IMG/VR virus record: IMGVR_UViG_2778261277_000016
Location: 1-25,499 of that record
From: a virus
Taxonomy: Duplodnaviria > Heunggongvirae > Uroviricota > Caudoviricetes
Length of the DNA: 25,499 nt
Direction: 5' to 3' (one strand)
Part shown: positions 1 to 25,499 of the stretch, one piece after another
How the letters are laid out: the number at the start of each line of letters is the position of its first letter
Position numbering within the stretch: position 1 is the first letter of the stretch
The notes under the pieces: generated by a model
What the model saw: only the letters and a program-made list of their open reading frames with translations
Told to the model about the DNA's origin: nothing
Databases searched by the model: none
Made by a program: the position numbers and the translations under genes

Positions 1-141
1 TTACTGCTTACACTGTAAGAACGCCGCAAACTCCGCTCCCCAGAAGCTCATCCGTATTTCACACAGCGAACCGTGCAACATCCAGATGATGAGGATTGCC
101 GTCACGCAGAACGTGATGGCCGTAAGCGATTTTTGCGACAT
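1..141 (-). CDS. Hok/Gef-family type I toxin (small membrane peptide), 46 aa; below the length cutoff of the ORF track
   Basis: My translation of the reverse strand: MSQKSLTAITFCVTAILIIWMLHGSLCEIRMSFWGAEFAAFLQCKQ. Hydrophobic N-terminal helix followed by SLCEIR and EFAAF, which match the Hok-family signature (SLCEIR...EVAAF) as I remember it. AAGGAG lies about 8 nt upstream of the ATG. Stop codon is at positions 1-3. Confidence 0.55.
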   Translation of the reverse strand: MSQKSLTAITFCVTAILIIWMLHGSLCEIRMSFWGAEFAAFLQCKQ

Positions 142-331: not shown

Positions 332-592
332 TTAATTCTGAGGTAAAGGCAAGCTCATCTGATTGTTTCCCCTGTGTGAAGCTGGCAGCTCATGCCACGG
401 GATACCTTCTGAAGAGTGGATGCCGGAGGCGTGTTTCGATGTGAATTTATGGAAAGCTTCCAGTGTTGAGAAGCATACGCCGCATTCCAGGTTGTTACAC
501 TGGTAATACTTTTGCCGCACGGTGTTTGAATCATTTTCCGGACGACTGGTGCGGATACGGGCAGATGCGCCACAAAGCGGACAACGGAACAT
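332..592 (-). CDS. ogr: Ogr/Delta-family zinc-finger late transcription activator
   Basis: N-terminus MFRCPLCGASARIRTSR...YYQCNNLECGVCF has the C-x2-C...C-x4-C pattern and matches P2 Ogr (MFHCPLC...RTSR...YHQCQNVNC) from memory. Position after gene D fits P2 synteny. Confidence 0.8.
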   Translation of the reverse strand: MFRCPLCGASARIRTSRPENDSNTVRQKYYQCNNLECGVCFSTLEAFHKFTSKHASGIHSSEGIPWHELPASHRGNNQMSLPLPQN

Positions 593-696
593 AGCGACCT
601 CCCTTAACGTAGTGCTGTCGCTAGTTTAGGCTGAACTTGCTCAGACTCCAACTGATAGTTCGTTTTGTTTACTGATGCCGTAGAAAGGTCTCTTAG

Positions 697-725
697 CAAG
701 AATAACCCCAGTTTAACACTGGGGT
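697..725 (-). terminator. Rho-independent terminator downstream of the cargo gene
   Basis: Perfect 8-bp inverted repeat ACCCCAGT(705-712)/ACTGGGGT(718-725) with a 5-nt loop, about 17 nt after the stop at 742; on the - strand it is followed by a T-rich run (TTATTCTTGC). Confidence 0.45.
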
Positions 726-741
726 TGCTTGCAACAGAGCG

Positions 742-1407
742 TCAATTTTTAAGAGCACTGATACAGAAAAATTGCATGACATTTTTCTTTATTGATTTAA
801 ATAAGCTAAACATTGTGACAGGTTCAAAGCTAGTTAACTCGATGAATTCCTCTCTCATTTGAGAAAGTAACAGCTGACGTACTGATTCAATTTCTGCTGT
901 TTGTTTTCTCAAATATCTTGAGAAAACAAGTAGTTCATCAGCTGTTTTGTTTTGGCCATTTATAAACGTAACAGGTTGCCCTGGCTTAGATATGAGAAAA
1001 AATTGGTTAATTTTATCAAGTAATGGTGGAATTATTTTTTTCCATTCAGCCCATTCTTTTTCACGATGAAACTCCAGACTGTGCTGACATGTTCTTAGTT
1101 GCTGTCTATCAATCGCCCAGACCTCACTCTCATCGAGGCAATCTTTCCATTTGCTAATTACATTAATGTCAAATTTTTTGTTCGGTAGATAATTATCTTT
1201 GGCGTGCGCTTCCAGTATAGAGGCAAGAGTACCTGTATATTGCATCAAATTGGTAGATGCTCGGTTTACTAGCTCTGATATTCGATCTAGTTGAGTTGTT
1301 CTAATCTCAAGTGCTTTCTTTTTACGTTCATTTCGTAAAGCAAAATATGCAGCAAGGCAGACTGCAGCAACTGTGGCTGCTGGTGCGATAAAAATTTGCA
1401 TATTCAT
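742..1407 (-). CDS. Hypothetical membrane-anchored protein (AT-rich cargo gene between D and ogr), about 221 aa
   Basis: Long ORF in a visibly AT-rich stretch flanked by GC-rich phage genes. N-terminal hydrophobic helix IFIAPAATVAAVCLAAYFAL followed by a basic patch RNERKKK. AAGGA lies 8 nt before the ATG at 1405-1407; the ORF could extend to 1431. No homolog recognised. Confidence 0.6.
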   Translation of the reverse strand: MNMQIFIAPAATVAAVCLAAYFALRNERKKKALEIRTTQLDRISELVNRASTNLMQYTGTLASILEAHAKDNYLPNKKFDINVISKWKDCLDESEVWAIDRQQLRTCQHSLEFHREKEWAEWKKIIPPLLDKINQFFLISKPGQPVTFINGQNKTADELLVFSRYLRKQTAEIESVRQLLLSQMREEFIELTSFEPVTMFSLFKSIKKNVMQFFCISALKN

Positions 1408-1601
1408 AACATGGATCCTTTGACATGGCATTTATGGGGGCTATTTCAGCAGTAATCATTTGTGTGTAAATTTGTTTGCTACAAATTAACATATTCTAAT
1501 GTAAGGCTCTTCTGATTTTGACACCGGGTAGGCTGTCAGATTGGTTATGATTCTTGCTGTAAGCGCGTTAGCAAATGTCAGGGCTAATGCATCTAAGTTG
1601 T

Positions 1602-2711
1602 TTACTCTGTTTCTGCTATCCATTCCGGGATTTTGGCTTCAAGCTCAAGCTGCGTGGTAAAGCCACTGTTATCAATGGTGTGCTCGGCTTTTGCAATAAT
1701 CCAGTCCTGATTATCAATTTCGCTTTTAAATCCTGTTACCGTGCCATGCATTTCGGGGTAGAGTTCTGCGCGTCCACGTGCCAGTGTGATGGAGAACGCT
1801 GCGGCTCCGCGTTGTAGCTGCTGCCACTTTGCCGCCGCTGCGCGTCTTGCTGCCTGCTCGTTCTGATAAGTCTTGCGTAACACAAACACATTGCCTTCTG
1901 CGCCTTCCATATAATCACCTTCACGGCTGCTGCTTTTCTCCTTTTTGGGTTTTGGCGGTTTGCGGCGTTTCACGCTGACTTTTTTCTTTTTCCCGTAATT
2001 AAGATCAAGCCAGTAAGCGCGTACCCCCGTATACGCTTCGCGGTCAGCAATGCGGAACTGATGGCGATCGCCACTGCTGCGCGTGATGGCGAACGAGGGC
2101 AACGGCTGGCCCTGTGCGTTCACGCCACCGCCTGGCATGATGAATAACAGATTACCGCTTTTTACCGTGGTGATTGCGCCCAGCATTTCCGCCATGCGCG
2201 TAAGGAAGGACATGTCGCTTTCTTCGGTCTGGTCGGCGTGGTCGATTTCGATATCCATCAGCATTTCGCTGATTTGTGGTTTCAGACCATACCGATGAGC
2301 GATGGCGGATACCACACGCTCGAGGGTCACATCATGCCAGGACACCTCACGTTTAACGTTAAATTCATCCCGAAAATCTGCGCTTCTGGCTGAAACAGTC
2401 AGCCTGTCCGGCGGTCCTTCGTGAGCGATTTCATCAACAATGTAAGTGCCTTTTTCTGTCAGCGGTTCTCCTTTCCAGCCAATGAGAACCGTCAGGCGCG
2501 CGCCCCGTGGCGGTAGCTGCAACTGACCATCCGCATCATCCAGCGTGATGGTGAGCTGGTCCGCCTCAAATCCCCGGTTGTCGGTCAGTGACAGGCTCAT
2601 CAGGCGCTCTGCCACGCCTGACAGCGTTTTACCCTCCGCAAGAATATCAAAATCCGGCATTTTCACGGGGTCTGTGCCCTGACTGAGCAATTGCATGGTG
2701 GTATCGGTCAT
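1602..2711 (-). CDS. D: Phage tail protein D (P2 gpD family, late control gene D)
   Basis: 369-aa product; size, position before ogr and overall sequence fit P2 gpD. Start chosen at MTDTT because AGGGAGGG precedes it; the ORF track extends to 2732. Confidence 0.8.
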   Translation of the reverse strand: MTDTTMQLLSQGTDPVKMPDFDILAEGKTLSGVAERLMSLSLTDNRGFEADQLTITLDDADGQLQLPPRGARLTVLIGWKGEPLTEKGTYIVDEIAHEGPPDRLTVSARSADFRDEFNVKREVSWHDVTLERVVSAIAHRYGLKPQISEMLMDIEIDHADQTEESDMSFLTRMAEMLGAITTVKSGNLLFIMPGGGVNAQGQPLPSFAITRSSGDRHQFRIADREAYTGVRAYWLDLNYGKKKKVSVKRRKPPKPKKEKSSSREGDYMEGAEGNVFVLRKTYQNEQAARRAAAAKWQQLQRGAAAFSITLARGRAELYPEMHGTVTGFKSEIDNQDWIIAKAEHTIDNSGFTTQLELEAKIPEWIAETE

Positions 2712-2764
2712 CTTTCCCTCCCTGTGCGCCATGGTCGCATGTGCGTGCGGAGGGGGTTACTGCT

Positions 2765-8450: not shown

Positions 8451-8488
8451 AAAACCGCTAATGGTCAGATTAGCGGTTTTCATTTTCC
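8451..8488. terminator. Bidirectional hairpin terminator between U and the invertase fragment
   Basis: Perfect 12-bp inverted repeat AAAACCGCTAAT(8451-8462)/ATTAGCGGTTTT(8469-8480) with a 6-nt loop, followed by CATTTTCC on +. Sits between convergent genes. Confidence 0.5.
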
Positions 8489-8775
8489 TGAGTCTGCCTG
8501 GTTGTTTCTTCAGCCTGTATATCGCCTACAGGGTGATAACGATAAATCGTCGATATGCCGATGTCGTAAATGATCGCCAGTTGTTTCCTGTCATGACCGT
8601 TTTTAATCAGCCTCGCTATTTGTTCGTGTTGTTCTTTTGTCAACTTCGGGCGACGTCCGCCAATGCGTCCTTGTGCGCGTGCTGCTGCCAGCCCGGCCAG
8701 TGTACGCTCTACAATTAATTCATGTTCCATTTCGGCTAAAGCTCCCATGACGTGAAAAAAGAAACGCCCCATGGG
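8470..8775 (-). pseudogene. Truncated serine-invertase paralog (C-terminal half only)
   Basis: Translation PMGRFFFHVMGALAEMEHELIVERTLAGLAAARAQGRIGGRRPKLTKEQHEQIARLIKNGHDRKQLAIIYDIGISTIYRYHP matches the C-terminal half of the adjacent invertase with a handful of substitutions. DNA similarity stops near 8775; the catalytic N-terminus is absent and there is no convincing RBS. Confidence 0.6.
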
Positions 8776-8860
8776 TGTTGATTGATGCGCCGCGCGATAA
8801 ACGTACCTATTTCCGTGAGATAAATTACATCGCCGCGGCATTTCAATATCAGAAAAAGAA

Positions 8861-9433
8861 TTACAAATCAGCTTGAGTTTGAAGTTCCTCTACAGGGTGA
8901 TAACGATAAATCGTCGATATACCGATATCGTAAATAATTGCCAACTGTTTCCTGCTATAGCCATTTTTGATCAGCCTTGCTATTTGTTCATGTTGCTCTT
9001 TTGTCAGTTTCGGACGACGTCCACCAATACGCCCCTGTGCACGTGCTGCTTCAAGTCCGGCCAGTGTTCGTTCAACTATTAATTCACGCTCCATTTCCGC
9101 TAAAGCCCCCATGACGTGAAAAAAGAAACGTCCCATGGGTGTTGACGTATCAATGCTGTCTGTAAGACTACGGAAGTTAACCCCTTTTTCCCGCAGTTCC
9201 TCAATAAGAGTGATGAGGTGTTTCATGCTTCTGCCCAGCCTGTCCAGCTTCCAGACAACGAGCGTATCTCCTTCTGATAACGTTCTGAGCAGCTTTTTCA
9301 ATCCCGGTCGGGCTGACTTTGTTCCGCTGATTTTATCCTCAAAAATCAGTTCACATCCTGCGCAGTTCAGTGCGTTTCGTTGTAAATCTGTATTCTGGTC
9401 ATTTGTTGACACACGAATGTAGCCAATTTGCAT
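8861..9433 (-). CDS. Serine DNA invertase, Gin/Hin/Pin/Cin/Min family
   Basis: Starts MQIGYIRVSTNDQNTDLQRNAL, the canonical N-terminus of this family with the catalytic Ser in RVST. Also has TLVVWKLDRLGRS, SLTDSIDTS and a C-terminal HTH (GISTIYRYHP). AAAGAGGA RBS 8 nt before the ATG. The ORF track's upstream extension to 9628 is rejected. Confidence 0.9.
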   Translation of the reverse strand: MQIGYIRVSTNDQNTDLQRNALNCAGCELIFEDKISGTKSARPGLKKLLRTLSEGDTLVVWKLDRLGRSMKHLITLIEELREKGVNFRSLTDSIDTSTPMGRFFFHVMGALAEMERELIVERTLAGLEAARAQGRIGGRRPKLTKEQHEQIARLIKNGYSRKQLAIIYDIGISTIYRYHPVEELQTQADL

Positions 9434-9487
9434 GAAAAATATCCTCTTTGTTTTGTTAAAAATACATAGCTGGTATAGGTGGGAGTT

Positions 9488-9513
9488 AAGACGAAAACGT
9501 TGGTTTGGGGGAA
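9488..9513. repeat. Candidate 26-bp invertase crossover site (cassette 1)
   Basis: AAGACGAAAACG-TT-GGTTTGGGGGAA. Right half-site is identical in all five sites; overall shape resembles hixL TTCTTGAAAACC-AA-GGTTTTTGATAA from memory. Confidence 0.5.
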
Positions 9514-9936
9514 GGCTCAGCGCTGCCCGTTGGTGTGCCCGTTCCGTGGCCCTCAGCCACACCGCCAGCAGGGTGGCTGAAATGTAACGGCGCAGCATTT
9601 TCTTCTGAAATGTACCCCAATCTGGCAAAGGCTTATCCTACAAATAAATTACCGGATTTACGGGGTGAGTTTATTCGCGGCTGGGATGACGGGCGGGGAA
9701 TTGATTCAGGACGCACTCTACTTTCGTTACAGGGCGATATGTTTAAATCGCACAGTCATTACTTCCGTGAAATATGGGGTGCAAATGGACCAGATGGAAC
9801 TGGTGGACCGTACATTGTCGGGGCGGATACAAACGGTTCGAGAATAAATTTAGGCACTATAGAAACCAGTGCACCTGGTGGTTCAGAAACCCGTCCCCGT
9901 AACATTGCATTTAATTACATCGTAAGAGCGGCATAG
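9505..9936 (+). CDS. Silent tail-fibre C-terminal cassette 1 (tail-collar-like domain, HxH-containing); promoterless gene segment
   Basis: No ATG or RBS (the ORF track begins at TTG inside the crossover site). Conserved N-part GEGSALPVGVPVPWPSATPP.GWLKCNGAAFSSEMYP.LAKAYPTNKLPDLRGEFIRGWDDGRGID, variable middle, conserved end RPRNIAFNYIVRAA; the same ends occur in the expressed H gene. Confidence 0.75.
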   Translation: MGEGSALPVGVPVPWPSATPPAGWLKCNGAAFSSEMYPNLAKAYPTNKLPDLRGEFIRGWDDGRGIDSGRTLLSLQGDMFKSHSHYFREIWGANGPDGTGGPYIVGADTNGSRINLGTIETSAPGGSETRPRNIAFNYIVRAA

Positions 9937-9955
9937 AAACGTTGGTTTGGGGGAA
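9930..9955. repeat. Candidate crossover site (cassette 2)
   Basis: GGCATAGAAACG-TT-GGTTTGGGGGAA; the left half-site contains the stop codon of cassette 1. Confidence 0.5.
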
Positions 9956-10414
9956 GGCTCGGCGCTGCCCGTTGGTGTGCCTGTTCCGTGGCCCTCAGCC
10001 ACACCACCAACGGGCTGGCTGAAATGTAACGGTGCAGCATTTTCTTCTGAAATGTATCCCAAACTGGCAAAAGCTTACCCCACCAATAAATTACCGGATT
10101 TACGGGGTGAATTTATTCGTGGCTGGGATGATGGGCGGGGAATTGATAATAGACGCAACCTACTGTCTGCACAGTCTGACACTATTCAGAATATAGTTGG
10201 CACTTTTGGACGAACTCAGCTTTTTAAAGATGCTTTAAATTCAGGGCCATTTAGTCAAACTGACTCTATATTATCAGTAGGCTTGCAACCAACTGAGAAT
10301 ATTGAAGGATATGGCGCCTCTGTATGGACATTCGACGCCTCTCGCTCAGTTCGCACAGCATCTGAAACACGTCCTCGTAACATTGCGTTTAATTACATCG
10401 TAAGGGCGGCATAG
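9947..10414 (+). CDS. Silent tail-fibre C-terminal cassette 2 (no HxH, AT-rich variable core)
   Basis: Same conserved ends as cassette 1; variable core NRRNLLSAQSDTIQNIVGTF... is unrelated to cassettes 1 and 4; in a different reading frame from cassette 1. Confidence 0.75.
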   Translation: MGEGSALPVGVPVPWPSATPPTGWLKCNGAAFSSEMYPKLAKAYPTNKLPDLRGEFIRGWDDGRGIDNRRNLLSAQSDTIQNIVGTFGRTQLFKDALNSGPFSQTDSILSVGLQPTENIEGYGASVWTFDASRSVRTASETRPRNIAFNYIVRAA

Positions 10415-10433
10415 AAACGTTGGTTTGGGGGAA
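10408..10433. repeat. Candidate crossover site (cassette 3)
   Basis: GGCATAGAAACG-TT-GGTTTGGGGGAA, identical to the cassette 2 and 4 sites. Confidence 0.5.
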
Positions 10434-10886
10434 GGCTCTGCACTACCTGTTGGTGTGCCTGTTCCATGGCCGTCAGCCACACCGCCAACAGGGTGGCTGA
10501 AATGTAACGGTGCAGCATTTTCTTCTGAAATGTACCCCAATCTGGCAAAGGCTTACCCCACGAATAAATTACCGGATTTACGGGGCGAATTTATCCGTGG
10601 CTGGGATGACGGACGAGGTATTGATGCAGGACGAGAGATACTTTCATTTCAGGAAGGCACTATCGTCTCCGGTTTTGATGATAATGATACTGGGGATATC
10701 AGTTCACTTAGCTCAACACAATACGGATTTGGTGACACTCTAACCTCTAATCAATGGGGGGCCATAAATGGCAAAAAGTGGATATTTGATGCATCCAGTA
10801 AAGGTGCACAAAAATATGACTGGCGGGCTTATGTATCAGCTCGTCCGCGTAATATTGCATTTAATTACATCGTAAGAGCGGCATAG
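10425..10886 (+). CDS. Silent tail-fibre C-terminal cassette 3 (no HxH)
   Basis: Same conserved ends; unique variable core AGREILSFQEGTIVSGFDDNDTGD... Confidence 0.75.
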   Translation: MGEGSALPVGVPVPWPSATPPTGWLKCNGAAFSSEMYPNLAKAYPTNKLPDLRGEFIRGWDDGRGIDAGREILSFQEGTIVSGFDDNDTGDISSLSSTQYGFGDTLTSNQWGAINGKKWIFDASSKGAQKYDWRAYVSARPRNIAFNYIVRAA

Positions 10887-10905
10887 AAACGTTGGTTTGG
10901 GGGAA
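10880..10905. repeat. Candidate crossover site (cassette 4)
   Basis: GGCATAGAAACG-TT-GGTTTGGGGGAA. Confidence 0.5.
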
Positions 10906-11400
10906 GGCTCTGCACTACCCGTTGGTGTGCCTGTTCCGTGGCCCTCAGCCACACCGCCAACAGGGTGGCTGAAATGTAACGGCGCAGCATTTTCTTCTGA
11001 AATGTACCCCAAACTGGCAAAGGCTTACCCCACCAATAAATTACCGGATTTACGGGGTGAGTTTATTCGTGGCTGGGATGATGGGCGGGGAATTGATTCA
11101 GGGCGTTCCTTGCTTAATGCACAATCACATTCGGTTATAGATCATATTCATTATATGGAGTTATGGACTGGTGAAGGGCTTGCCGCAAACAACACCCGTG
11201 CAGGAACAAACCCTGGTATACTGGCTACATACGGTGATGGCGGGATTGTTAAAACAGATGAGTCAGGTGTAAAAGTTCCATCTTCACTACGTGCTATTGG
11301 CACTCGTGGTGTTTATAGATTAGGTGCCAACGGAGGGAATACAGGAACGGAAAACCGCCCCCGTAATATTGCGTTTAACTATATTGTAAGGGCTACTTAA
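10897..11400 (+). CDS. Silent tail-fibre C-terminal cassette 4 (HxH-containing), coupled to the downstream tail-fibre assembly gene
   Basis: Same conserved ends; variable core contains HIHYMELW; its stop overlaps the next gene's start as TAATG (11398-11402). Confidence 0.75.
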   Translation: MGEGSALPVGVPVPWPSATPPTGWLKCNGAAFSSEMYPKLAKAYPTNKLPDLRGEFIRGWDDGRGIDSGRSLLNAQSHSVIDHIHYMELWTGEGLAANNTRAGTNPGILATYGDGGIVKTDESGVKVPSSLRAIGTRGVYRLGANGGNTGTENRPRNIAFNYIVRAT

Positions 11401-12017
11401 TGAATAATGCTGCTGCAGTACTTGATCAGAATGGTATCGCTATAACTGCAGGCGATATTACCGTTTATAACTACGATGCTGAAAACCGTGAATATCTCTC
11501 TGCCACTGTTGAGTATCTCGCTTATGGTGTTGGAATTCCGGCTCACTCATGCATTGACGCGCCACCAGAAAAACGCCCCGGCTTCGCTGTCTGTCGTGAT
11601 ACCGACCAGAACATCTGGAAATATGTTCCAGACCACAGAGGCGAAACGGTTTACAGCACAGAGAATGGTAACGCTGTGCAAATCACACAACCGGGAGATT
11701 ACCCTCCTGATACGACGGTGAAACAGCCAGCTACTATCTATGATGTCTGGGATGGTGAGATTTGGGTGACAGATACGAGACGACAGCACGCAGCAGAACT
11801 GGAAGCTGCCGGAGCGCATCGTCAGCAACTTGAGGAACAGGCAATGGCATCTGTTGAGCTTATTAATCTCAAACTACGAGCCGGACGCCGATTGACGCCC
11901 CAGGAGACGGAAAAACTAAACGCCGTGCTTGATTTCATAGATACGCTTAATGCGACTGACATCAGCACTGCACCGGATATCAACTGGCCGGAAATGCCTC
12001 TGGCAGCAGCCAGTTGA
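11400..12017 (+). CDS. Tail fibre assembly protein (Tfa family; P2 gpG / Mu U analogue)
   Basis: 205 aa; translationally coupled to cassette 4 with an AAGGG RBS; family assignment is from memory of Tfa-like proteins (short conserved N-terminus, Asp/Pro-rich regions, coiled-coil segment) and from its position beside the fibre cassettes. Confidence 0.75.
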   Translation: MNNAAAVLDQNGIAITAGDITVYNYDAENREYLSATVEYLAYGVGIPAHSCIDAPPEKRPGFAVCRDTDQNIWKYVPDHRGETVYSTENGNAVQITQPGDYPPDTTVKQPATIYDVWDGEIWVTDTRRQHAAELEAAGAHRQQLEEQAMASVELINLKLRAGRRLTPQETEKLNAVLDFIDTLNATDISTAPDINWPEMPLAAAS

Positions 12018-12023
12018 GTATAA

Positions 12024-13541
12024 TTAAGCCGCCCTCACGATATAGTTAAATGCGATATTGCGGGGGCGAGTTTCACTACCACCAGTGTTACCAATACTCC
12101 CTCGTGAATGAAGTGTCGGTGATGGGATCAGACTCCCGCCTGTACTTGTGGCATCAAGTCCCCGTCCTTGTGTATATGTTTTTTTGAAAATTGTGGCCAA
12201 CTCCCATTCATCCTTTGTGTCATACCCATCGTTAGCTACAACAATATGGCGGTGTTTTTCCAGCATCCCAGTTTGAAAGCTTAATAAAGCACGTCCTGCA
12301 TCAATCCCTCGCCCGTCATCCCAGCCACGAATAAACTCGCCCCGTAAATCCGGTAATTTATTGGTGGGGTAAGCCTTTGCCAGTTTGGGGTACATTTCAG
12401 AAGAAAATGCTGCACCGTTACATTTCAGCCACCCTGTTGGCGGTGTGGCTGAGGGCCACGGAACAGGCACACCAACGGGTAGTGCAGAGCCTTCCCCCAA
12501 ACCAAGGTATGCGAGAAGACCAGCTACATCCTTTCCACTCAAATTGGTAAGCGTATTGTCCAGCGGTTGTTTACCTGCCAGCGCACTAAGCATTGTCGTG
12601 GCAAAGTTCGGATCATTCCCCAGTGCCGCAGCCAGTTCGTTCAGCGTGTTCAGTGCATCAGGTGACGAATCTACAAGTGCGGCAATCGCGGCCATAACGA
12701 AAGCCGTGCTTGCGATCTGGGTACTATTAGTCCCCTGTGGCGCTGTTGGTGTTGTTGGCATTCCGGTCAGTGCCGGGCTGTTTAATGGTGCTTTCTTGCT
12801 CGTTTCATCCATTACCGCCTTAACAGCTTTTGGTGTCGCTGCCAGCGTTTCAGACGTGCTGTTCGTGGCGCTACTGAGCTGAACAATCCCTTTTTGTGTT
12901 GTGGTGGCGTTCTGGGCGGTATATTTCCCGTCAGCCAGGTCATATGCAGCCTTAACTGCTTTCGGTGTTGCGGCCAGTGTTTCTGATTCACTGTTAATTG
13001 CACTGCTTAACTGAGTAAAACCTTTTGCGGTCAGCGAGGCGTCCGGGTGACGTCGTGACTGTTCGTGCTCTGAGATTTTATCATCCACATATTTGCGGGT
13101 TGCCAGAACCACCGACGGGTCGATTTTCAGCGTGATGGCTTCGGTATTCGTGACAACCAGAATCATGCGGATAGTCTGGGTGCGTCCACTGCCTTCCTGC
13201 AACTGCGGTTTGTACGTTTCCGGGCAGTTTGCCACCGCAATGAGTACACCTTCATCATCATAAAGACCAATCTCACGGATCCAGAATCCTCCCTCGTTTT
13301 CAGGGATGATTTGCTCCGCAATAATCTGGCTCTGATTGTTAGGGTCAACACTCAGAAGATTCAGCGGTGCAATGCGTTTCTGGTTAATCAGTTTTGTTTG
13401 TGCAGGGTCTGGTGTTGGTAACACACCATTTGCATCACCAACGGCCATTTGCGTCAGATTCAGCTTACTGCCGAGCATCGTCGCGTTAGCCAGTCGTGCT
13501 GCGCCCTGATTAGTCAGAATGGCGTAGTATTTCACTGTCAT
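12024..13541 (-). CDS. H: Tail fibre protein H, currently expressed variant (P2 gpH-like N-terminus fused to a tail-collar-type C-terminal cassette)
   Basis: N-terminal portion through EHEQSRRHPDASLTAKGFTQLSSA...ETLAATPKAVKA matches P2 gpH from memory. The C-terminal 155 aa begin ...LGLGEGSALPVGVPVPWPSATPPTGWLKCNG and end RPRNIAFNYIVRAA, the same frame as the silent cassettes on the opposite strand. Confidence 0.9.
   Translation of the reverse strand: MTVKYYAILTNQGAARLANATMLGSKLNLTQMAVGDANGVLPTPDPAQTKLINQKRIAPLNLLSVDPNNQSQIIAEQIIPENEGGFWIREIGLYDDEGVLIAVANCPETYKPQLQEGSGRTQTIRMILVVTNTEAITLKIDPSVVLATRKYVDDKISEHEQSRRHPDASLTAKGFTQLSSAINSESETLAATPKAVKAAYDLADGKYTAQNATTTQKGIVQLSSATNSTSETLAATPKAVKAVMDETSKKAPLNSPALTGMPTTPTAPQGTNSTQIASTAFVMAAIAALVDSSPDALNTLNELAAALGNDPNFATTMLSALAGKQPLDNTLTNLSGKDVAGLLAYLGLGEGSALPVGVPVPWPSATPPTGWLKCNGAAFSSEMYPKLAKAYPTNKLPDLRGEFIRGWDDGRGIDAGRALLSFQTGMLEKHRHIVVANDGYDTKDEWELATIFKKTYTQGRGLDATSTGGSLIPSPTLHSRGSIGNTGGSETRPRNIAFNYIVRAA
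12492..12517. repeat. Candidate crossover site inside H (constant/variable junction), inverted relative to the cassette sites
   Basis: + strand reads TTCCCCCAAACC-AA-GGTATGCGAGAA, i.e. on the - strand TTCTCGCATACC-TT-GGTTTGGGGGAA. Homology with the cassettes begins exactly at the TT core, inside the CTT codon of ...AYLGLGEGS. Confidence 0.55.
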
Positions 13542-25334: not shown

Positions 25335-25499
25335 TTATCCTGCTGTGCTTTCAACTGATGAGGGGAACAAAATCTTTTCATCAAACCCTGCATTCATATC
25401 ATGGACAGCAACACACCAATCCATTGACGAACGATTATCAAGAGCCTCCATGATTTCATCCATGCGGCGTAGGTCATACAGGTAAATGTTTTTATCGCC
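25335..25499 (-). CDS. 3' end of an AT-rich gene of unknown function (5' end beyond the window)
   Basis: My translation of the - strand from the window edge: ...GDKNIYLYDLRRMDEIMEALDNRSSMDWCVAVHDMNAGFDEKILFPSSVESTAG, stop at 25335-25337, followed by the terminator above. Lies beyond cos, where P2 carries old/tin. Confidence 0.35.
   Translation of the reverse strand, partial: GDKNIYLYDLRRMDEIMEALDNRSSMDWCVAVHDMNAGFDEKILFPSSVESTAG

Follow-up and report, generated by a model that had tools for sequence, protein, structure and literature searches.

A low-GC gene between tail gene D and ogr

Positions 697-1601 of the window, that is, of the whole 25,499-nucleotide stretch of DNA analysed here, hold a single-gene moron in a P2-like (Peduoviridae, Xuanwuvirus-like) E. 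coli prophage. The cargo gene lies between the tail gene D, which in relatives bears the annotation "late control D family protein", and the late-gene activator gene ogr, which is annotated in all sampled relatives (Table 1). Counted from its first ATG, the open reading frame comprises 229 codons; the likely start is a later ATG, which is preceded at a distance of 8 nt by the ribosome-binding site AAGGA and yields a protein of 221 amino acids beginning with MNMQIF. The RefSeq annotation of identical DNA uses this same start, and the upstream ATG is out of frame in a Kluyvera relative, which supports the shorter reading. GC content is 0.359 in the gene and 0.532 in the whole window, while GC3 amounts to 0.28 as compared with 0.58 in D. 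The region between D and the start codon (1408-1601) has a GC content of about 0.38. On the other side, 16 nt past the stop codon, sequence prediction places an intrinsic-terminator-like hairpin, AACCCCAGT-GTTAA-ACTGGGGTT followed by ATTCTTGC, with a 9-bp stem containing five G-C pairs, a 5-nt loop and a T-rich tail. An Rfam scan of the whole window returned no RNA family.

A consensus sigma-70 scan of the 194 minus-strand nucleotides between D and the start codon returned no promoter, and reading by eye gave one weak candidate, TTTACA and TGAAAT separated by 16 nt. No terminator-like site was found in the scan between D and the cargo gene. As the terminator of the P2 F operon lies after ogr, transcription from the late tail operon probably reaches the gene as well. 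An earlier note on this DNA had described, between D and ogr, a gene of about 221 codons with strikingly lower GC, its own ribosome-binding site, an AT-rich upstream region and its own terminator hairpin; this description holds throughout, the hairpin as a sequence prediction. Its further claim of an independent transcription unit agrees with the predicted terminator, but the only promoter candidate is the weak one read by eye, and with probable transcription from the tail operon the gene would not be a purely independent unit.

Table 1. Positions of the features discussed in the text (window coordinates)
Feature	Position	Strand	Remarks
Hok/Gef-type toxin ORF	1-141	-	46 aa; directly downstream of ogr
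ogr	332-592	-	PF04606 Ogr_Delta, E 5e-14; downstream anchor of the slot
Left arm	593-667	-	Common to occupied slots whatever the cargo; putative ogr promoter and ogr ribosome-binding site
Terminator-like hairpin	726-704	-	Sequence prediction
Cargo open reading frame	742-1431	-	Counted from first ATG
Cargo coding sequence	742-1407	-	Likely start ATG 1407-1405
Ribosome-binding site	1420-1416	-	AAGGA
Cassette 5' region	1408-1549	-	About 77% identical to Kluyvera cassettes in unrelated elements
Weak candidate promoter	1470-1465 and 1448-1443	-	Read by eye
Right arm	1550-1601	-	Just past D stop codon; common to slots with other cargo; begins CAACTTAGA
Tail gene D	1602-2732	-	PF05954 Phage_GPD, E 1.2e-16; upstream anchor of the slot
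Invertible tail-fibre region	8470-13541		Multi-cassette
Serine recombinase (invertase), two copies	8470-9628	-	Full-length ORF within 8861-9628; truncated 123-aa C-terminal copy 8470-8841
Alternative tail-fibre C-terminal cassettes	9505-9936, 9947-10414, 10425-10886, 10897-11400	+	
Tail-fibre assembly gene	11400-12017	+	
Tail-fibre gene H	12024-13541	-	

The D-ogr junction is a hypervariable cargo slot

In the P2 annotation, D and ogr are 81 nt apart, with the ogr promoter between them and the terminator for ogr and the late F operon after ogr, in agreement with the gene order that the earlier note had given for P2. The empty junction is shorter in the E. coli lineage of the window, measuring 40-42 nt in the ST131, JJ1887 and PD23 prophages. 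We compared a 201-nt probe across the empty D-ogr site with 5426 complete E. coli genomes, of which 1202 matched. The junction was uninterrupted in 720 of these 1202; the remaining genomes match the probe only in part, so that up to about 40% may carry something between D and ogr. With D followed directly by ogr both in P2 and in 720 E. coli genomes, the gene is indeed an insert of foreign composition, as the note had proposed.

The cargo gene itself was detected in 58 E. coli genomes, always on the chromosome and at full length in 54, and is present in EPEC E2348/69 and O55:H7 CB9615. All 54 copies that cover at least 80% of a wider probe have D and ogr as flanks. A few copies are truncated, split, interrupted or frameshifted, including that of the deposited phage 520873. 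The same gene in all related phages, which the note had named as speaking against its reading, is not what we observed: the gene occurs in a minority only, and its absence from most related prophages means that it is dispensable.

Related prophages differ strongly in what they carry at this position. Among ten other prophages, taken from one list of matches, three have empty slots, one prophage is disrupted by an insertion sequence, and six each hold a different gene. These six encode a 201-aa protein found in eight genomes, a 500-aa PIN_4 protein (E 4.5e-8), a 527-aa GmrSD_N protein (E 2e-13; locus L023) and, in the opposite orientation, a 340-aa protein that matches HEPN weakly and two proteins of 487 and 384 aa with no domain match. 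GC content was about 0.38 in both alternative cargo genes measured, those for the 201-aa and PIN proteins. PADLOC matched no complete system in the alternative cargo, most of which it did not recognise. Overall, the sampled prophages show seven unrelated occupants as well as empty sites, and the D-ogr junction is a hypervariable cargo slot with high turnover of unrelated genes.

This distribution bears on the idea that the gene is a lytic-cycle accessory, co-transcribed with the tail operon late in infection and acting, for instance, in lysis timing or in membrane protection of the lysing cell, with no benefit to the lysogen intended. Such a role is highly improbable. It would fit the position of the gene, on the same strand as D, directly downstream of it and with no terminator-like site between, and also the P2 F-operon transcript, which runs past D to the terminator after ogr. 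However, a gene that most related prophages lack is dispensable, some copies are interrupted or frameshifted (that of the deposited phage 520873 among them), and the family extends to plasmids, ICEs and chromosomal islands, all of which have no lytic cycle.

Shared arms point to the ogr promoter

Occupied slots have about 50 nt upstream of the ogr ribosome-binding site in common and, in part, the first 60 nt or so past the D stop codon. Both arms recur in the slots at L012, L014, L023, L024, L025 and L028, which hold unrelated cargo on either strand. The left arm carries a putative ogr promoter, TTGGAG and TAAACT (TAGAAT in relatives) with a spacing of 17 nt. The element CAACTTAGA, present in both arms, corresponds to the ogr -10 region, judging from comparison with the annotated P2 promoter.

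Alignments define how far each arm reaches. On the left side, homology to L012 and L014 extends to 665-667, and that to the empty site L013 only to 617. On the right side, other prophages remain homologous only as far as 1585-1592, while homology to the Kluyvera cassette begins only at 1549 or 1504. Alignment of the 75 nt past the D stop codon to the GmrSD slot at L023 scores 47, compared with a mean of 13 after shuffling, and L014 and L024 give weaker matches. The arm alignments reach significance. From its sequence, the slot thus looks like a duplicated ogr promoter with cargo between the copies: the cargo sits at the putative ogr promoter, which appears to be regenerated on the ogr side. 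The shared arms could enable related prophages to swap cargo by homologous recombination. We also considered whether the left arm is a relic duplication of the D 3' end and rejected this, the similarity not being significant (p about 0.1-0.2). Inverted repeats flanking the cargo gave a signal only at L023 and L012, where it was weak, and are absent from the window.

A predicted membrane-anchored protein of an unannotated family

The cargo protein contains one hydrophobic segment, residues 5-24, with a mean Kyte-Doolittle value of 2.1. Its N-terminal flank, MNMQ, is uncharged, while the segment is followed directly by RNERKKK, and the 16 residues past the helix comprise six K/R and two D/E. By the positive-inside rule, these flanks predict an anchored N terminus outside, a C terminus inside and a bulk that is cytoplasmic; the product is therefore predicted to be a single-pass inner-membrane protein of N-out/C-in topology. 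An AlphaFold2 model computed from a 26-sequence alignment (mean pLDDT 79.8, pTM 0.67) is all-helical, with a long helix spanning residues 3-71 that includes the membrane segment and packs with shorter helices as a four-helix bundle. It ends in a C-terminal helix (199-219), which is amphipathic, the hydrophobic moment peaking at residues 197-216. As modelled, the four-helix bundle is a generic fold and carries no functional information.

Searches of Pfam, NCBIfam, PHROG and PADLOC with the cargo protein and 17 family members gave only noise. The best PADLOC-DB v2.0.0 match had an E value of 0.023 (REase_II, 33 residues), with nothing consistent across the 17 members, and in PHROG, superinfection-exclusion families included, none of the 17 had a match below E 0.02. 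A profile search of PDB sequences found only weak coiled-coil/apolipoprotein-like matches (E at least 0.035), and Foldseek comparison with PDB and BFVD yielded no structural match at E<0.001. The protein contains no catalytic motif or recognisable effector domain, and no virulence or metabolic domain. A text search of a collection of papers by RefSeq protein accession and two presumed locus tags found no mention of it. Together, these results agree with what the earlier note had read from the sequence, one N-terminal transmembrane helix, a basic juxtamembrane patch and a cytoplasmic domain with no recognised motif, and no housekeeping or structural phage protein emerged as a homologue from the profile- and structure-based searches.

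HMMER, run exhaustively against 1.84 billion cluster representatives, identified 24 relatives, most of 199-235 aa, and family members align end to end at identities down to about 20-30%. H114 and W122 are invariant across the family alignment, and conservation extends to P9, T12 and A20 in the transmembrane helix and to a juxtamembrane motif, LRNExxKK. The helix also presents an Ala-rich small-xxx-small face; an Ala-rich face combined with a conserved sequence suggests that the helix makes specific contacts with other helices and is not just a passive anchor. The named hosts are enterobacteria throughout, with the exception of two plasmid matches in Erwinia and Winslowiella, and only five plasmids in PLSDB carry a relative.

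Low GC, the missing family annotation and the few truncated or split copies might be taken to indicate AT-rich filler DNA in which the ORF is decaying or has no meaning. This explanation has a negligible probability and is effectively refuted by the 24 cluster representatives of matching length, the confident AlphaFold model, the 54 full-length copies among 58 in E. coli and a dN/dS of 0.24-0.33, as calculated from the window gene, an 86% identical E. coli allele and a 73% identical Kluyvera homologue. By its substitution pattern, the 221-aa ORF is a real gene under purifying selection.

Relatives travel alone among mobile elements

The 73% identical Kluyvera homologue occurs in two settings. 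One is a lambdoid prophage, where it lies between replication genes and RusA/Q, and the other is an integrase island, where its neighbours are an RT-like gene, a TIR protein and a helicase of 1207 aa. The two elements have 966 bp in common at 99.4% identity, made up of the gene with 119 nt before it and 181 nt after it, and their flanks are unrelated. The window is 77% identical to these Kluyvera cassettes over the gene and about 100-145 nt upstream, and the cassette 5' region contains, besides the ribosome-binding site, a conserved block, GAATATGTTAATTTGT.

Distant relatives were found in equally diverse surroundings: adjoining Rep3 plasmid replication genes; in a cysH-adjacent island beside CBASS (SMODS and S_4TM) and a STAND ATPase; together with a KAP NTPase in an integrase island adjacent to ssrA; next to HipA in an ICE; in a conjugation cluster between TraC and TraU; in a Citrobacter prophage; and on Klebsiella plasmids within a cluster of KAP NTPase, TIR, CBASS, RES and NACHT genes. 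An AAA_15/21 ATPase lies near one relative. The cargo gene thus travels alone, as a cassette of about 1 kb, among P2-like and lambdoid prophages, plasmids, ICEs and integrase islands.

Two kinds of association were considered and rejected. A conserved partner gene was dismissed, the downstream neighbours in three loci being mutually unrelated. A functional link to CBASS was set aside as unproven: between the two CBASS-adjoining settings, the family gene is 67% identical at the amino acid level and the SMODS-S_4TM pair about 90%, the two aligning as separate blocks, and the P2-like copy occurs without CBASS. This unequal divergence indicates that the family gene and CBASS are neighbours and not one inherited unit.

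In the Kluyvera lambdoid prophage (L002, L003, L005; 6077-7652), the gene immediately upstream of the family gene encodes a protein of 408 aa that contains a colicin pore-forming domain. Between the two lies a divergent gene for a 100-aa protein with a signal-peptide-like N terminus, and this cargo pair is unusual in a prophage. A role in colicin immunity, as the neighbour might imply, was rejected, since the other copies examined have no colicin gene.

Other features of the prophage

A Hok/Gef-type toxin ORF follows directly on the downstream side of ogr, where the prophage ends next to ihfA or serS. Every intact prophage sampled from the lineage carries it, whatever the D-ogr cargo, and an Rfam gathering scan of the window found no Sok-like RNA. 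In many genomes of the lineage (L012-L015, L023, L024, L028), RefSeq shortens D to a "VgrG/Pvc8 family" protein of 262-266 aa accompanied by a small pseudogene, or marks it as frameshifted, as in ECA64; the D ORF of the window is intact and has 376 codons from its first ATG.

The window also contains a multi-cassette invertible tail-fibre region. The tail-fibre gene H has a segment, GEGSALPVGVPVPWPSATPPTGWLKCNGAAF, in common with four C-terminal cassettes on the plus strand and, in its present arrangement, no assembly gene downstream on its own strand. A serine recombinase (invertase) occurs twice, and its full-length and truncated copies are nearly identical over their common part. The order of tail-fibre elements differs from that in the otherwise 98% identical ECA64 prophage, which indicates that the segment has been shuffled. 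In the ECA64 prophage, the gpA-gpQ hotspot (L030 330-2818, immediately past window position 25499) is occupied by ParM-like and partition genes, a protein of the XF1762 family and two hypotheticals, with no recognised defence system.

Genomic company and possible function

The genomic company of the family suggests a role in excluding other phages. Pointing in this direction are the neighbouring CBASS genes (SMODS and S_4TM) in two separate settings, the RT and TIR genes, and the KAP NTPase, RES, NACHT and STAND genes, while relatives that adjoin plasmid rep genes or sit inside a conjugation cluster count against a defence reading. Phage protection is the commonest explanation of dispensable mobile cargo that is often found among immune genes, and in P4 hotspots, six out of eight randomly chosen unknown cargo loci protected against phages (PMC13586616).

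We tentatively favour, at a little less than an even chance, the reading that this mobile moron gene benefits the lysogen by blocking other phages, with abortive infection as the preferred mode. The preference for abortive infection, held with modest confidence, derives from the protein being almost all cytoplasmic and from relatives that stand beside abortive-type systems. On this reading, the cargo protein would block other phages to the benefit of the lysogen as follows: the cytoplasmic bundle would sense a phage product, upon which the conserved transmembrane helix and the amphipathic helix would self-associate, compromise the inner membrane and stop the infection. Expression in the lysogen would likely be driven by the gene's own weak promoter, with read-through from the late F (tail) operon also likely in lytic growth.

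The same membrane anchor could instead serve superinfection exclusion, in which a constitutive membrane protein of the lysogen blocks phage DNA entry without killing the cell. Here, the transmembrane helix would bind a host inner-membrane component or the ejection machinery of the incoming phage and thereby halt genome translocation. An exclusion membrane protein encoded by a phage moron and working without a partner gene is the general pattern of P22 SieA, T4 Imm and HK97 gp15. The cargo protein resembles it in being prophage-borne and single-pass, in working without a partner gene, in being encoded by a moron located where the tail operon ends, and in having a transmembrane helix that is conserved (P9, T12, A20) and not merely hydrophobic. 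We nevertheless regard exclusion as unlikely: only about four residues would lie outside by the positive-inside rule, which is unusual for proteins acting on incoming tails, no PHROG superinfection-exclusion family was matched, and the family is also found in chromosomal defence islands beside abortive-infection-type systems.

A somewhat better, though still rather poor, chance is given to cargo that is not anti-phage at all and provides membrane-stress tolerance, plasmid or conjugation exclusion or interference, anti-defence or another lysogenic-conversion trait. Relatives that adjoin Rep3 genes, sit between TraC and TraU or stand beside HipA in an ICE are consistent with this, as is the fact that the family matches no defence model. 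Published machine-learning screens, moreover, rate only 15-32% of the unknown P2 proteins as defensive (PMC13586616), a low share that likewise argues for a role outside defence. Three observations oppose it, namely, the recurrence of the family, across independent elements, next to CBASS, TIR, KAP-NTPase and STAND genes, the nuclease-domain proteins typical of defence that the D-ogr slot also holds, and the lack of any virulence or metabolic domain.

Returning to protection against phages, we consider a broader proposal plausible, if short of even probability: that the family is a new one of single-gene, membrane-anchored anti-phage proteins, acting by abortive infection or exclusion, in enterobacterial mobile elements and defence islands, and that D-ogr is a further P2-like hotspot, located on a duplicated ogr promoter and filled mostly with single-gene systems outside the defence databases. 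Few sources of new bacterial immune systems have been as rich as prophage cargo slots, and if phage resistance holds true, the D-ogr junction would be an unexploited additional cargo hotspot of P2-like phages. As the family is tiny, solitary and devoid of a recognisable effector domain, a phage-resistance phenotype would imply a minimal, easily dissected membrane mechanism; a gene with no phenotype would be one more orphan moron. Overall, the locus is a true moron in a genuine, little-described slot and encodes an unannotated membrane-protein family with circumstantial defence links, an outcome that will not surprise the specialist.

Comparison with known systems

Defence hotspots of P2-like phages have been located between gpA and gpQ (old/tin) and at Z/fun (Rousset 2022, PMC9122126; Vassallo 2022, PMC9519451), and a 2026 NAR survey (PMC13586616) adds int-att, int-primase and tail-gene loci. 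D-ogr is not among the P2 defence hotspots named in these three papers, and neither the slot nor the cargo protein family appears in the defence catalogues and hotspot papers compared. On the circular phage map, D-ogr-att-int-C is the interval from the last tail gene to the repressor, and the D-ogr slot may fall inside the "tail protein - CI" hotspot of iLund4u; the portion of the preprint text considered here gives no finer hotspot position and no description of this membrane-protein family.

Among membrane proteins, four-helix bundles are known from 4HB_MCP-type sensors, that is, chemoreceptors and histidine kinases such as NarX/NarQ and Tar; the cargo protein has neither their family profile nor a periplasmic site between two transmembrane helices. 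Like P22 SieA, T4 Imm and HK97 gp15, it is a small inner-membrane moron protein without a partner gene. Unlike these, it shows no PHROG homology, its bulk is predicted to be cytoplasmic, and its family is not restricted to phages.

As to the slot, the D-ogr junction differs from P2 old, tin and Z/fun in its location at the putative ogr promoter, and its cargo protein does not resemble Old, Tin, Fun or any PADLOC model in sequence or fold. As with P2 old, tin, Z/fun and the gpA-gpQ cargo, however, a dispensable gene of foreign composition is placed between conserved P2-type core genes, and the slot resembles the gpA-gpQ and Z/fun hotspots in its high turnover and in cargo that is common to other mobile elements.
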